Assembly: GCF_055900595.2 (NCBI RefSeq)
Contig: NZ_CM148325.1
DNA: 64,000 nucleotides
Reading direction: 5' to 3' (one strand)
Of the stretch, positions 2,815 to 56,188 are shown in pieces; the first letter of the stretch is position 1; every line of letters begins with the position of its first letter. The notes under the pieces are model-generated. The model was not told the DNA's origin, made no database searches, and saw only the letters and a list, made by a program, of their open reading frames with translations. The position numbers and the translations under genes are program-made.

Positions 2815-3651
2815 ATGAAGAAAAATCGCGCTTTTTTGAAGTGGGCAGGGGGCAAGTATCCCCTGCTTGATGATATTAAACGGCATTTGCCCAAGGGCGA
2901 ATGTCTGGTTGAGCCTTTTGTAGGTGCCGGGTCGGTGTTTCTCAACACCGACTTTTCTCGTTATATCCTTGCCGATATCAATAGCGACCTGATCAGTCTC
3001 TATAACATTGTGAAGATGCGTACTGATGAGTACGTACAGGCCGCACGCGAGCTGTTTGTTCCCGAAACAAATTGCGCCGAGGTTTACTATCAGTTCCGCG
3101 AAGAGTTCAACAAAAGCCAGGATCCGTTCCGTCGGGCGGTACTGTTTTTATATTTGAACCGCTACGGTTACAACGGCCTGTGTCGTTACAATCTGCGCGG
3201 TGAGTTTAACGTGCCGTTTGGCCGCTACAAAAAACCCTATTTCCCGGAAGCAGAGTTGTATCACTTCGCTGAAAAAGCGCAGAATGCCTTTTTCTATTGT
3301 GAGTCTTACGCCGATAGCATGGCGCGCGCAGATGATGCATCCGTCGTCTATTGCGATCCGCCTTATGCGCCGCTGTCTGCGACCGCCAACTTTACGGCGT
3401 ATCACACAAACAGTTTTACGCTTGAACAACAAGCGCATCTGGCGGAGATCGCCGAAGGTCTGGTTGAGCGCCATATTCCAGTGCTGATCTCCAATCACGA
3501 TACGATGTTAACGCGTGAGTGGTATCAGCGCGCAAAATTGCATGTCGTCAAAGTTCGACGCAGTATAAGCAGCAACGGCGGCACACGTAAAAAGGTGGAC
3601 GAACTGCTGGCTTTGTACAAACCAGGAGTCGTTTCACCCGCGAAAAAATAA
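2815..3651 (+). CDS. dam: DNA adenine methyltransferase (GATC N6-adenine MTase, orphan)
   Basis: 278-aa ORF with DPPY catalytic motif ([11 protein letters not shown]) and N-terminal SAM-binding region; operon context damX-dam-rpe-gph-trpS. Confidence 0.95.
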
Positions 3652-3668
3652 TTCTCAAGGAGAAGCGG

Positions 3669-4346
3669 ATGAAACAGTATTTGATTGCCCCCTCAATTCT
3701 GTCGGCTGATTTTGCCCGCCTGGGTGAAGATACCGCAAAAGCCCTGGCAGCTGGCGCTGATGTCGTGCATTTTGACGTCATGGATAACCACTATGTTCCC
3801 AATCTGACGATTGGGCCAATGGTGCTGAAATCTCTGCGTAATTATGGCATTACTGCCCCTATTGATGTGCATCTGATGGTGAAACCGGTCGATCGCATTG
3901 TGCCAGATTTCGCTGCCGCTGGTGCCAGCATCATAACCTTTCATCCAGAAGCCTCCGAGCATGTTGACCGCACGCTGCAACTGATTAAAGAAAATGGCTG
4001 TAAAGCGGGGCTGGTATTTAACCCGGCGACACCGCTGAGCTATCTGGATTACGTGATGGATAAGCTGGATGTGATCCTGCTGATGTCCGTCAACCCTGGT
4101 TTCGGCGGTCAGTCTTTCATTCCTCAAACACTGGATAAACTGCGCGAAGTACGTCGTCGTATCGACGAGTCTGGCTTCGACATTCGACTGGAAGTGGACG
4201 GCGGCGTGAAGGTGAACAACATTGGCGAAATCGCTGCGGCAGGTGCCGATATGTTCGTCGCTGGTTCGGCCATTTTCGATCAGCCAGACTACAAAAAGGT
4301 CATTGATGAAATGCGCAGTGAACTGGCAAAGGTAAGTCATGAATAA
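3669..4346 (+). CDS. rpe: ribulose-phosphate 3-epimerase
   Basis: 225-aa ORF, N-term [21 protein letters not shown]; 8-nt overlap with gph. Confidence 0.95.
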
Positions 4347-5097
4347 GTTTGAAGATATTCGCGGCGTCGCTTTTGATCTCGATGGTACGCTGGTGGACAG
4401 TGCTCCTGGTCTGGCTGCTGCGGTAGATATGGCGCTGTATGCGCTGGAGTTGCCCGTCGCAGGTGAAGAGCGTGTTATTACCTGGATTGGTAATGGCGCA
4501 GATGTTCTGATGGAGCGTGCATTGACCTGGGCGCGTCAGGAACGTGCGACTCTGCGTAAAACAATGGGTAAACCGCCCGTTGATGACGACATTCCGGCAG
4601 AAGAACAGGTACGTATTCTGCGGAAACTGTTCGATCGCTACTATGGCGAGGTTGCCGAAGAGGGGACGTTTTTGTTCCCGCACGTTGCCGATACGCTTGG
4701 CGCATTGCAGGCAAAAGGCCTGCCGCTAGGTCTGGTCACCAACAAACCGACGCCGTTCGTCGCGCCACTGCTCGAAGCCTTAGATATCGCAAAATACTTT
4801 AGCGTGGTCATTGGCGGCGATGATGTGCAAAACAAAAAACCGCATCCGGACCCACTGTTACTGGTGGCTGAGCGGATGGGCATTGCCCCACAACAGATGC
4901 TGTTTGTTGGCGACTCACGCAATGATATTCAGGCAGCAAAAGCAGCTGGTTGCCCTTCTGTTGGTTTAACCTATGGATATAACTACGGCGAGGCTATCGA
5001 TCTTAGCCAGCCTGATGTAATTTATCAGTCTATCAATGACCTTCTGCCCGCACTAGGGCTTCCGCATAGCGAAAATCAGGAATCGAAAAATGACTAA
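4339..5097 (+). CDS. gph: phosphoglycolate phosphatase (HAD superfamily)
   Basis: 252-aa ORF with HAD motif [11 protein letters not shown]; overlaps rpe and trpS. Confidence 0.9.
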
Positions 5098-6094
5098 GCC
5101 CATCGTTTTTAGTGGCGCACAGCCCTCAGGTGAATTGACCATTGGTAACTACATGGGTGCGCTGCGTCAGTGGGTAAACATGCAGGATGACTACCATTGC
5201 ATTTACTGTATCGTTGACCAACATGCGATCACCGTGCGCCAGGATGCACAGAAGCTGCGTAAAGCAACACTGGATACGCTGGCGTTGTATCTGGCTTGTG
5301 GTATCGATCCTGAGAAAAGCACCATTTTTGTTCAGTCCCACGTGCCGGAACATGCGCAGTTAGGCTGGGCACTGAACTGCTATACCTACTTCGGCGAACT
5401 GAGCCGTATGACCCAGTTTAAAGACAAATCTGCGCGTTATGCCGAGAATATCAATGCTGGTCTGTTTGATTATCCGGTGCTGATGGCGGCGGATATTCTA
5501 CTGTATCAAACCAACCTGGTGCCGGTGGGTGAAGACCAGAAACAGCACCTGGAACTGAGCCGCGATATCGCCCAGCGTTTCAACGCGCTGTATGGCGATA
5601 TTTTTAAAGTGCCGGAACCGTTTATTCCGAAATCCGGCGCGCGCGTAATGTCGCTGCTGGAGCCGACCAAGAAGATGTCCAAGTCTGACGATAATCGCAA
5701 TAACGTTATCGGCCTGCTGGAAGATCCGAAATCGGTCGTGAAGAAAATCAAACGCGCGGTCACTGACTCCGACGAGCCGCCGGTAGTTCGCTATGATGTG
5801 CAGAATAAAGCGGGCGTTTCCAACCTGCTGGATATCCTTTCTGCGGTAACTGGCCAGAGTATCCCGGAACTGGAAAAACAGTTCGAAGGCAAGATGTATG
5901 GTCATCTGAAAGGCGAAGTGGCTGATGCCGTTTCTGGTATGCTGACTGAATTGCAGGAACGTTATCACCGTTTCCGCAACGACGAAGCCTTCCTGCAACA
6001 GGTCATGAAAGACGGCGCAGAAAAAGCCAGTGCACACGCTTCCCGGACGCTGAAAGCGGTTTACGAAGCGATTGGTTTTGTGGCGAAGCCGTAA
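5090..6094 (+). CDS. trpS: tryptophanyl-tRNA synthetase
   Basis: 334-aa ORF with class I KMSKS motif (KKMSKSDDN) and HIGH-region equivalent TIGNYMG. Confidence 0.95.
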
Positions 6095-6109
6095 TTTAAC
6101 ATTAATGCC

Positions 6110-6135
6110 AAAAACCGGGGAAACCCGGTTTTTTT
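6110..6135 (+). terminator. rho-independent terminator after trpS
   Basis: AAAAACCGGG-GAAA-CCCGGTTTTTTT stem-loop with T-run immediately after trpS stop. Confidence 0.8.
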
Positions 6136-6203
6136 ATCCTCATTTGCAATAATCCGAAAAAATGTGAAGCGCCTCGCCGTTTCCACATCTCACAGTTGCC
6201 ACT

Positions 6204-6225
6204 TATCTTCATTTTAATGAAGATA
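6204..6225. promoter_or_regulatory. perfect 10-bp inverted repeat (TATCTTCATT-tt-AATGAAGATA), candidate operator about 30 bp upstream of yhfZ
   Basis: Palindrome read directly from sequence in the AT-rich trpS-yhfZ intergenic region. Confidence 0.4.
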
Positions 6226-6253
6226 TAAACATTCATTTTATTGAAAATATATT

Positions 6254-21076: not shown

Positions 21077-21658
<582 letters not shown>

Positions 21659-21667
21659 TGATTTCTC

Positions 21668-21689
21668 GCGCGGGCAATCTTGCCCGCGC
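21668..21689 (+). terminator. terminator hairpin after ppiA
   Basis: GCGCGGGCAA-tc-TTGCCCGCGC perfect 10-bp stem followed by T-rich sequence. Confidence 0.6.
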
Positions 21690-21762
21690 TTCTGCTCTCC
21701 CGGCGTAACCCGGATTTGCCGCTTATACTTGTGGCAAATGGACACGTTCAGGGAGGCATCAA

Positions 21763-21930
21763 GTGAAGAAACTCACCGATAAGCAAAAGTCCCGTCTCTG
21801 GGAGCTTCAGCGTAATCGTAATTTCCAGGCCAGTCGCCGTCTTGAAGGCGTCGAGATGCCTTTAGTTACTCTTACTGCCGCAGAGGCTTTAGCGCGCCTT
21901 GAAGAGCTGAGGAGGCACTATGAGCGATAA
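21763..21930 (+). CDS. yhfG: small Fic-associated protein (antitoxin-like, FicA/YhfG)
   Basis: Hand-translated 55-aa ORF from GTG ([22 protein letters not shown]...[10 protein letters not shown]), ending 11 nt inside fic; not in ORF track. Confidence 0.6.
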
Positions 21931-22522
21931 ATTCGGCGAAGGGCGCGATCCGTATCTTTATCCTGGCCTTGATATCATGCGTAACCGGCTGAACATCCGC
22001 CAGCAACAGCGGCTGGAACAGGCCGCTTACGAAATGACGGCGCTGCGTGCTGCGACCATTGAGCTTGGTCCGCTGGTGCGCGGTTTACCGCATTTGCGCA
22101 CTCTCCATCGCCAGCTGTATCAGGATATTTTCGACTGGGCGGGGCAACTGCGTGAAGTTGATATTTATCAGGGCGATACGCCGTTCTGCCACTTTGCTTA
22201 TATCGAAAAAGAGGGCAATGCCCTGATGCAGGATCTGGAGGAAGAAGGGTATCTGGTTGGCCTGGAGAAAACGAAGTTCGTCGAGCGGCTGGCACACTAC
22301 TATTGTGAAATCAACGTCCTGCATCCCTTCCGGGCGGGAAGTGGTCTGGCACAGCGGATCTTCTTCGAGCAACTGGCGATTCATGCTGGTTATCAACTGA
22401 GCTGGCAGGGTATCGAAAAAGAGGCCTGGAATCAGGCAAATCAGAGTGGGGCAATGGGTGATCTCACTGCGCTGCAGACGATATTTAGCAAAGTGGTAAG
22501 CGAAGCCGGGGAATCTGAGTAA
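21920..22522 (+). CDS. fic: Fic-family protein (FicT-like, toxin-like fold)
   Basis: 200-aa ORF; Fic-motif position reads [12 protein letters not shown], a degenerate form of HxFx(D/E)GNGRxxR. Confidence 0.85.
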
Positions 22523-22553: not shown

Positions 22554-23117
22554 ATGATCCTGCTTATTGATAACTACGATTCTTTCACCTGGAACCTCTA
22601 CCAGTACTTTTGTGAACTGGGGGCCGACGTGTTGGTTAAGCGCAACGATGCGTTGACGCTGGCGGATATCGACGCCCTGAAACCGCAAAAAATTGTCATC
22701 TCACCCGGCCCCTGTACGCCAGATGAAGCCGGGATCTCCCTTGACGTTATTCGTCACTATGCCGGACGCTTGCCGATTCTTGGTGTCTGCCTCGGTCATC
22801 AGGCAATGGCGCAGGCATTTGGCGGCAAAGTTGTGCGCGCCGCAAAGGTGATGCACGGCAAAACCTCGCCGATCACACATAACGGTGATGGCGTATTTAA
22901 GGGGCTGGCAGATCCACTCACCGTGACACGCTACCATTCGCTGGTGGTGGAGCCTGACTCATTACCGGAGTGCTTTGAAGTGACGGCCTGGAGCGAAACC
23001 CGCGAGATTATGGGGATTCGCCATCGCCAGTGGGATCTGGAAGGTGTGCAGTTCCATCCAGAAAGTATTCTCAGCGAACAAGGACATCAACTGCTGGCTA
23101 ATTTCCTGGAACGCTGA
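22554..23117 (+). CDS. pabA: aminodeoxychorismate synthase component II (glutamine amidotransferase)
   Basis: 187-aa ORF with class I GATase triad region (GVCLGHQ). Confidence 0.9.
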
Positions 23118-55732: not shown

Positions 55733-55822
55733 AGCCAGCCAATCTTTTGTATGTCTGTGCGTTTCCATTTGAGTATCCTGAAAACGGGCTTTTCAGCATG
55801 GAACGTACATATTAAATAGTAG

Positions 55823-56188
<366 letters not shown>

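Follow-up and report, generated by a model that had tools for sequence, protein, structure and literature searches.

The yhfG–fic pair in the DNA that we analyzed (64,000 nucleotides of contig NZ_CM148325.1, assembly GCF_055900595.2; hereafter, the window) is almost certainly the chromosomal yhfG–fic (ecficA–ecficT) locus of Escherichia coli, the founding member of the Fic family. Its FIC signature loop is replaced at three positions, a degeneracy that is fixed throughout the lineage, and purifying selection on both genes is strong. The explanation that we judge best, and on the whole moderately probable, is that yhfG–fic is a domesticated derivative of a class I FicTA module, that is, that YhfG holds an altered but still inhibitable Fic. 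The locus, its degenerate motif, the structure and the evolutionary history are all in print; the feature is, therefore, already known.

Identity and layout of the pair

The yhfG and fic ORFs are co-oriented and share 11 nucleotides (21920–21930; ATGAGCGATAA), exactly as the sequence-only reading had described from the ORF list and the letters for a 55-residue ORF with a GTG start and a 200-residue Fic ORF. The features of the region are collected in Table 1. YhfG matches Pfam family PF10832 (1.6e-24) and Fic matches PF02661 (Fic/DOC; E = 1.4e-13, residues 58–152); the latter score (51.9 bits) exceeds the gathering cut-off of 24 and places Fic in the FIC domain superfamily. Both proteins also pass their own NCBIfam equivalogs over their full lengths (PRK10204 for YhfG, 128.4 bits with a cut-off of 77; PRK10347 for Fic, 425.5 bits with a cut-off of 181); Fic fails the equivalogs for VbhT (NF045983; 137.8 bits, cut-off 800) and NmFic (NF046029; 64.3 bits, cut-off 230). 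On the basis of these matches and of the same annotation in an E. coli chromosome that is 100% identical, yhfG and fic are real genes and not chance ORFs.

Table 1. Features of the yhfG–fic region, in window positions.
Feature	Position	Strand	Description
Stem-loop	21668..21689	+	9-bp GC-rich stem, 4-nt loop; directly past the ppiA stop codon
fic promoter block	21714..21737	+	TTGCCGCTTATACTTGTGGCAA; −10 hexamer TATACT at 21724–21729, without a −35 consensus
yhfG Shine-Dalgarno	21750..21756	+	AGGGAGG, 6 nt upstream of the GTG start
yhfG (ecficA)	21763..21930	+	55 aa, GTG start; FicA-type inhibitory partner of Fic
YhfG inhibitory-helix motif	21832..21849	+	S24-R-R-L-E28-G29; matches [S/T]xxxE[G/N]
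Translational-coupling junction	21910..21930	+	fic Shine-Dalgarno, fic ATG and yhfG stop
fic (ecficT)	21920..22522	+	200 aa, ATG start; class I FIC-domain protein, EcFicT-like subgroup
Gly55 codon	22082..22084	+	GGT, wild-type; site of the classical fic-1 (G55R) mutation
FIC signature loop	22322..22357	+	residues 135–146; degenerate at three positions
Ala139 codon	22334..22336	+	GCG, rare allele; K-12 has GTG (Val)
pabA	22554..23117	+	aminodeoxychorismate synthase component 2 (ORF and annotation); begins 31 nt past the fic stop

The closest structures are those of the same proteins from E. coli K-12 (PDB 5JFF and 5JFZ; Stanger et al., 2016; PMC5033356), in which EcFicT and EcFicA form a 1:1 complex. 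Fic is ~97% identical to chain A of 5JFZ/5JFF (6e-132), from which it differs by H27R, I62L, A123T, V139A and M187T (K-12 residue first); YhfG is ~98% identical to chain B of 5JFF (3.9e-30), with S51R as its sole difference. The K-12 locus is the same one, with the same two proteins, the same position between ppiA and pabA and the same 11-nt overlap; the two share SRRLEG in YhfG, Ser at the Asn site and Leu at the first Arg site of the signature, and G55, Y12, T40, Y67 and F71 in Fic. The arrangement is that of class I FicTA modules, that is, a small upstream gene in the same orientation that encodes the inhibitory helix motif and overlaps fic by 11 nt; the FicA/FicT-like layout proposed at the outset thus holds, since the upstream gene carries S24RRLE28G29 and its product is nearly identical to the crystallized YhfG.

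The FIC signature loop

In the canonical signature HxFx(D/E)GNGRxxR, D/E serves Mg2+, and the Asn and first Arg serve the ATP phosphates. The loop of Fic retains H135, F137, G140, G142 and R146 and has A139, S141 and L143 in place of D/E, Asn and the first Arg, respectively, the same three replacements that had been noticed from the sequence alone; that is, three of the eight specified residues are replaced, and Fic does not carry the canonical signature of the FIC AMP-transferases. The degenerate loop is the true signature position. In a HMMER alignment it lies opposite HPFREGNGRAQR of Pseudomonas Fic-1 (8WT0), and MAFFT places it in the HPFR(E/D)GNGRxxR columns when Fic is aligned with six canonical representatives and four enterobacterial orthologues; neither a regular expression (H.F..G.G...R) nor the alignments to canonical relatives located a second, intact Fic motif in the protein.

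Canonical HPFR[DE]GNGRxxR is found in 113 of 149 representatives of related proteins (the top 150, clustered at 50%, with the query's own cluster excluded), and the other members of this set are mostly fragments or EcFicT-like sequences; the nearest relatives outside the enterobacterial lineage are canonical. A second set comprises 113 full-length cluster representatives that are 79–98% identical. Among these, H135, P136, F137, G140, G142, Q145 and R146 are invariant; position 139 is Leu, Ile, Val or Phe, position 141 is Ser or Asn, and position 143 is Leu, Met or Ile and never Arg. By this residue pattern, the degeneracy is fixed across the lineage rather than a lesion of one genome. Gly55 is likewise invariant (113/113); the phenotype of its replacement by Arg in fic-1 has been described (PMC5033356). 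Two apparent relatives from the search for representatives were set aside as artefacts, one (P0127) a 1,218-residue tandem 51-residue repeat and the other (P0130) with the appearance of an assembly of C-to-T-converted reads.

The features that characterize the EcFicT-like subgroup 3 of Stanger et al. (2016) are all present in Fic, namely L143, A139, S141, A36, T40, Y67, F71 and synteny with ppiA and pabA; compared with the Leu, Ile or Val that is usual in the subgroup, Ala139 is still hydrophobic, albeit smaller.

Ala139 is the sole local peculiarity of the window. Position 139 is Leu, Ile or Phe in other Enterobacteriaceae, Ala occurs at this position in none of the 113 cluster representatives, and the exact 61-mer around the codon is found in 12 of 5,426 complete E. 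coli genomes. The change from the Val of K-12 falls within the signature loop, at a residue that forms part of the lining of the proposed hydrophobic substrate groove; it is conservative, although not necessarily silent.

The inhibitory motif of YhfG and its complex with Fic

Of 120 YhfG cluster representatives, 114 have the inhibitory motif [S/T]xxxE[G/N] and 119 have its Glu. The crystal structure shows a salt bridge between YhfG Glu28 and Fic Arg146, which is the final Arg of the signature (R2), and this bridge adds 10 °C to the stability of the complex (PMC5033356); both residues, E28 and R146, are encoded in the window.

The same study terms the EcFicT signature ‘somewhat degenerated’ and calls the protein ‘toxin-like’, its activity being undetected: neither auto- nor target-adenylylation was observed, even when the inhibition motif was mutated (including E28G), and the structure argues against the binding of ATP (PMC5033356). 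The suggestion, made from the letters alone, that the AMPylation chemistry of Fic is impaired or altered coincides with these results, as does the description of E. coli Fic as toxin-like and yet not a canonical active toxin. On the latter point a 2024 review lists EcFicT among the FicT proteins that inhibit growth when ectopically expressed in E. coli, that is, the secondary literature disagrees on the toxicity of free EcFicT. Stanger et al. (2016) also described a subgroup-specific hydrophobic groove (A36, T40, Y67, F71 and V139) and 43 subgroup-specific conserved positions concentrated near the active site and flap, a distribution that points to ligand and target binding, and they proposed a yet-undiscovered substrate (PMC5033356). 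As of 2026, the mechanism of EcFicT is described in the literature as still elusive.

Expression signals

The stem-loop past ppiA folds with −21.4 kcal/mol (z = −3.1), and its arms (GCGCGGG/CCCGCG) are kept in five genera, with a variable loop; this hairpin probably terminates ppiA transcription and marks the upstream boundary of the yhfG–fic unit. The hairpin is not seen by a consensus terminator scan because its T-tail is weak, and a sigma-70 consensus scan misses the fic promoter because the promoter has no −35 element; both were recovered by a combination of cross-genus alignment, literature mapping and folding.

The promoter block reads TTGC(C/T)GCTTATACTTGTGGCAA (21714–21737) and is invariant in the five genera except for the one C/T position. 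Its TATACT is the published −10 element of fic, and the promoter is active with what lies downstream of −17 (PMC5650638). The fic promoter fragment for which sigma-38 dependence has been published extends from −157 to +99 (256 bp; PMC3089606); the primers and the BanI site of this fragment map to 21578–21833, exactly 256 bp, which places the fic +1 at ~21735. As this position is just upstream of yhfG, the sigma-S-dependent fic transcript has yhfG as its first cistron.

Both genes have strong Shine-Dalgarno sequences. The ribosome-binding region of yhfG (CAGGGAGG) is invariant in the five genera. The Shine-Dalgarno sequence of fic (AGGAGG, 21910–21915) is located inside yhfG, followed by the fic ATG at 21920 and the yhfG TAA at 21928–21930, and this junction (GGAG(G/T)CACTATGAGCGATAAAT) is also invariant in the five genera; the 11-nt overlap couples the translation of yhfG and fic. 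The consensus scan found no terminator-like site on the + strand between 22522 and 22554, and pabA is probably cotranscribed with fic. An Rfam scan of the whole window returned nothing in or near yhfG–fic.

Occurrence and genome context

An 861-nt region that contains the pair is present in 5,425 of 5,426 complete E. coli genomes and absent from one; both ORFs are intact in 5,423 (matches that cover at least 80% of the query). In strain Z0117EC0005 the region is 100% identical, and the order of the genes that RefSeq annotates there (tsgA, ppiA, yhfG, fic, pabA, argD and yhfK) is the order in the window. Salmonella, Klebsiella, Citrobacter and Leclercia have the equivalent order, that is, a gene for an MFS transporter (−), ppiA, YhfG, Fic, pabA, argD and a gene for a FUSC-family transporter (−); the lengths of 55 and 200 residues and the 11-nt overlap are identical (contig coordinates 2844–3011 and 3001–3603), and the gap between fic and pabA is 31–32 nt in these genera, too. 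The position of yhfG–fic is thus fixed across five genera, and the co-occurrence of the two genes, by which the first reading of the pair could be judged, is conserved in all of them.

When 72,556 plasmid records were searched with tblastn, four matches of at least 95% and three at 60–80% were obtained, the others being distant (at most 46% identical). One of the near-identical ‘plasmid’ matches (98%) was examined and is a mislabelled fragment of an E. coli chromosome, deposited as a linear 11-kb K. oxytoca record. The idea that the EcFicT-like lineage is plasmid-borne was rejected, given that the search recovered mainly distant canonical relatives. The mobility of typical toxin–antitoxin pairs (a patchy distribution and an association with mobile elements) was not found for yhfG–fic, which departs from them in being vertically inherited and not mobile; vertical inheritance of the locus between ppiA and pabA in the Enterobacteriaceae was described by Stanger et al. 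(2016) (PMC5033356).

Disruptions are occasional: fic is interrupted by an IS21-family element in one E. coli genome, a fusion-deletion variant occurs in a single contig, and yhfG of E. albertii has a stop codon (PMC5033356). Because Δfic strains are viable (PMC5033356), one genome has the IS21-split fic and one is without the locus, fic is dispensable; the pair is functional, though dispensable.

Selection on yhfG and fic

Pairwise dN/dS (Nei-Gojobori) was calculated across the five genera; the values are approximate because synonymous sites are saturated between genera (dS above 1). They are 0.04–0.10 for fic and 0.05–0.20 for yhfG, and 0.02–0.04, 0.04–0.08 and 0.04–0.08 for the neighboring ppiA, pabA and argD, respectively. 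For fic the raw contrast is unambiguous (pN ~0.08–0.13 vs pS ~0.59–0.74), and 92 of its 200 positions are invariant among the 113 representatives (79–98% identity). yhfG and fic both show strong purifying selection, like their housekeeping neighbors. A decaying pseudogene had been considered as a candidate and was rejected by dN/dS.

Comparison with known FicTA pairs

Beyond the K-12 proteins, the pair can be compared with three canonical systems. VbhT/VbhA from Bartonella schoenbuchensis (3SHG, 3ZC7 and 3ZCB) shares the class I architecture, in which a small inhibitor is encoded separately upstream, as well as the fold, the N-terminal extension and the inhibitory salt bridge from Glu to the last Arg; however, unlike Fic, VbhT has an intact HxFx(D/E)GNGRxxR, AMPylates GyrB and ParE and is toxic; it is also encoded on a plasmid and has a BID domain at its C terminus. 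The closest characterized canonical relative is Fic-1/AntF from Pseudomonas bijieensis 2P24 (8WT0; PMC13327609; E = 1.6e-48 over residues 1–196), with proteins of ~200 and 55 residues and an antitoxin that has S24 and E28 at the matching positions. Fic-1 differs from Fic in its HPFREGNGRAQR motif, in the AMPylation of GyrB Y111 and, with AntF, in its deAMPylase activity (PMC13327609); the residues E29, E36 and E139 of its acidic patch are Gln, Ala and Ala in Fic.

The third pair is encoded by the Acinetobacter johnsonii plasmid pFAHZZU3567hy-2 (NZ_CP140709.1), in which a 55-residue protein of the YhfG family (SLKLEG) is followed by a 198-residue Fic that is 46% identical. Unlike yhfG–fic, this pair is located on a mobilizable plasmid, has a 12-nt gap instead of an overlap and retains a canonical motif (HPFREGNGRTQR); it presumably illustrates the mobile, canonical ancestral state of the chromosomal lineage.

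Proposed mechanism and alternatives

In the explanation that we favor, yhfG–fic would have descended from a mobile, canonical class I FicTA toxin–antitoxin module that was then domesticated on the chromosome. In its FIC loop the acidic residue that binds metal, the Asn and the first Arg, which binds ATP, are gone, and in this explanation ATP can no longer be used for AMPylation. YhfG, which binds Fic 1:1 in the published structure, would block Arg146 by Glu28, and Fic, made mainly in stationary phase, would act with a non-ATP substrate on an undiscovered target under the restraint of YhfG. We infer an inhibitable activity from the conservation of His135, the glycine anion nest, Arg146, the groove residues and the inhibitory motif of YhfG; that Fic retains an altered but real catalysis is, taken on its own, an evenly balanced proposition. 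The conserved His and Arg could serve binding or the fold alone, an activity, a substrate and a target of EcFicT are absent from the literature, and fic is dispensable, all of which speak against this explanation. Should ectopic EcFicT indeed inhibit growth, a toxin more conventional than the one assumed here would fit. In our view, Fic is neither an inert remnant nor a gyrase-AMPylating toxin of the canonical kind.

The main rival, which we place on the unlikely side, is a pseudoenzyme: catalysis would have been lost, and Fic and YhfG would only bind, as a scaffold or regulator that is possibly tied to pabA and the stationary phase, with the active-site residues kept for the stability of the fold and for the YhfG interface. 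The three replaced motif residues and the dispensability of fic are in its favor, as are the published assays without activity, which include the E28G mutant that relieves inhibition (PMC5033356); moreover, the conservation of E28 and R146 could be structural, given the 10 °C that their bridge adds to the stability of the complex. However, His135, a general base without an obvious structural role, is invariant (113/113), the groove residues T40, Y67 and F71 are equally so (113/113), and the location of the 43 subgroup-specific positions near the active site and flap suggests that a ligand and a target are bound (PMC5033356). By analogy with Fic-1–AntF (8WT0), the closest characterized relative after EcFicT itself (1.6e-48), Fic–YhfG might instead be a deAMPylase or a similar hydrolase in which only the forward transferase reaction has been lost. 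The Fic-1–AntF activity needs antitoxin Glu28 and Fic Arg146, which are both conserved here, but three of the four acidic patch residues are missing in Fic (Q29, A36 and A139 in place of E29, E36 and E139), the reaction of Fic-1 requires a divalent metal and the metal-binding acidic residue of the motif is missing, and E. coli is without a known partner AMPylase that acts on gyrase; we consider such a de-modifying enzyme very unlikely.

The prospects of a canonical type II toxin–antitoxin pair, in which free Fic would arrest growth and AMPylate gyrase and topoisomerase IV as VbhT does and YhfG would be the labile antitoxin, are slimmer still. The residues for binding ATP and Mg (first Arg, Asn and acidic residue) are absent, the published adenylylation assays were negative (PMC5033356), the score with the VbhT equivalog is 138 bits with a cut-off of 800, and the locus has a fixed chromosomal position, is not mobile and is absent from genuine plasmids (the one 98% match that was examined being a mislabelled piece of chromosome); these outweigh, in our judgment, a gene layout and an inhibitory motif that are those of FicTA modules, a match to the PADLOC candidate model PDC-S04 (5e-75) and the inclusion of EcFicT among the growth-inhibiting FicT proteins in the 2024 review. 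We give almost no credence to a functionless toxin–antitoxin remnant that is drifting toward pseudogenization: the degenerate motif and the occasional disruptions (the IS insertion, the fusion-deletion variant and the E. albertii stop codon) would be compatible with decay, but the dN/dS of both genes is that of the neighboring housekeeping genes, all but three of the 5,426 E. coli genomes, as well as the other genera, have both ORFs intact, and almost half of the Fic positions (92/200) are invariant among the 113 representatives.

A link of fic to PABA/folate, drawn in older genetic work and given in one review table as ‘Fic (PABA or folate)’, is speculative. A more specific form of altered catalysis, which we regard as distinctly unlikely, is that Fic is a repurposed FIC enzyme that would transfer a group from a non-ATP diphosphate metabolite, the hydrophobic moiety of which would occupy the groove of the lineage; this activity would be tied to pabA and to the control of folate or cell division in stationary phase, and Ala139 would slightly enlarge the pocket.

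Implications

Fic is the protein that named its family, and the question of its activity and target is more than 30 years old and is recognized in the literature; our reading of the sequence adds supporting detail only and carries little weight as a discovery. For the biology of the pair, the selection that resembles that on housekeeping genes, the invariant His135, Arg146 and YhfG Glu and the conserved sigma-S promoter argue that yhfG–fic is functional and against its being a relic.

Variation in the Fic signature loop

Residue 139 in the signature loop of Fic, which lines the proposed substrate groove, is Ala in the window; K-12 E. coli has Val there, and other Enterobacteriaceae have Leu, Ile or Phe. 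Ala is absent from this position in all 113 cluster representatives of the full-length Fic set; the 61-mer that carries the Ala139 allele of the window has an exact match in 12 complete E. coli genomes out of 5,426. In a motif table of the 120 closest Fic cluster representatives, residues 141 (the canonical Asn site) and 143 (the canonical first-Arg site) co-vary: sequences with S141 mostly have L143, and those with N141 mostly have Met or Ile at position 143.

Coordinates of the features discussed in this section
Feature	Record	Position	Strand
Ala139 codon of fic	window	22334-22336	+
Fic match to PADLOC model PDC-S04	window	21920-22519	+
Alpha_RBS (RF00140)	window	55753-55864	+
YhfG-Fic fusion ORF	L006 (Logan ERR4228981 contig)	1011-1613	
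fic split by ISEc10, E. coli MS 21-1	L010 (NZ_CP146670.1)	3221-6239	

Possible variants and artefacts among database sequences

A 2.7-kb enterobacterial contig from Logan ERR4228981 (metagenomic or assembly) has a deletion of ~157 nt that joins YhfG residues 1-24 in-frame to Fic from approximately residue 22; the product, P0122, is a single 200-aa YhfG-Fic fusion protein encoded between ppiA and pabA. Its signature motif is HPFFVGSGRAQR, in which the first Arg is kept; both the inhibitory Glu of YhfG and the N-terminal DPY segment of Fic are missing. The fusion is known from one contig only; it could be a true variant of its lineage, or artefactual. P0279, a YhfG cluster representative (NCBI and Logan) that is labelled E. 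coli, reads SRRLGG in the inhibitory motif: this E28G change is identical to that in the engineered antitoxin mutant in crystal 5JFZ, and P0279 may be a laboratory construct within public data or a natural variant.

The PLSDB record NZ_CP069919.1 (‘Klebsiella oxytoca plasmid unnamed8’, linear, 11,338 bp) has the gene order nirD-nirB-tsgA-ppiA-yhfG-fic-pabA-argD-yhfK-crp, and its protein accessions are those of E. coli; it is almost certainly a fragment of an E. coli chromosome, mislabelled, or a contaminant. Two sequences from the representative search were set aside as artefacts. In P0127 (1,218 aa), a 51-aa unit matching Fic residues 102-149 is repeated ~24 times in tandem. P0130 resembles an EcFicT orthologue in which R-to-C, P-to-L, A-to-V and H-to-Y substitutions are pervasive, a pattern that C-to-T-converted or damaged DNA would produce.

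Defence-system annotation and dispensability of fic

Fic matches the PADLOC phage-defence-candidate model PDC-S04 (5e-75), so automated defence-system finders may flag this housekeeping-like chromosomal locus; no PADLOC model matches YhfG. The Rfam scan of the full 64-kb window gave a single match at the gathering score, Alpha_RBS, the leader of the alpha ribosomal-protein operon (102.7 bits), which is unrelated to yhfG-fic.

In E. coli MS 21-1, the IS21-like element ISEc10 (istA, istB) splits fic after approximately codon 80; yhfG is intact. This natural knock-out is consistent with the dispensability of fic.
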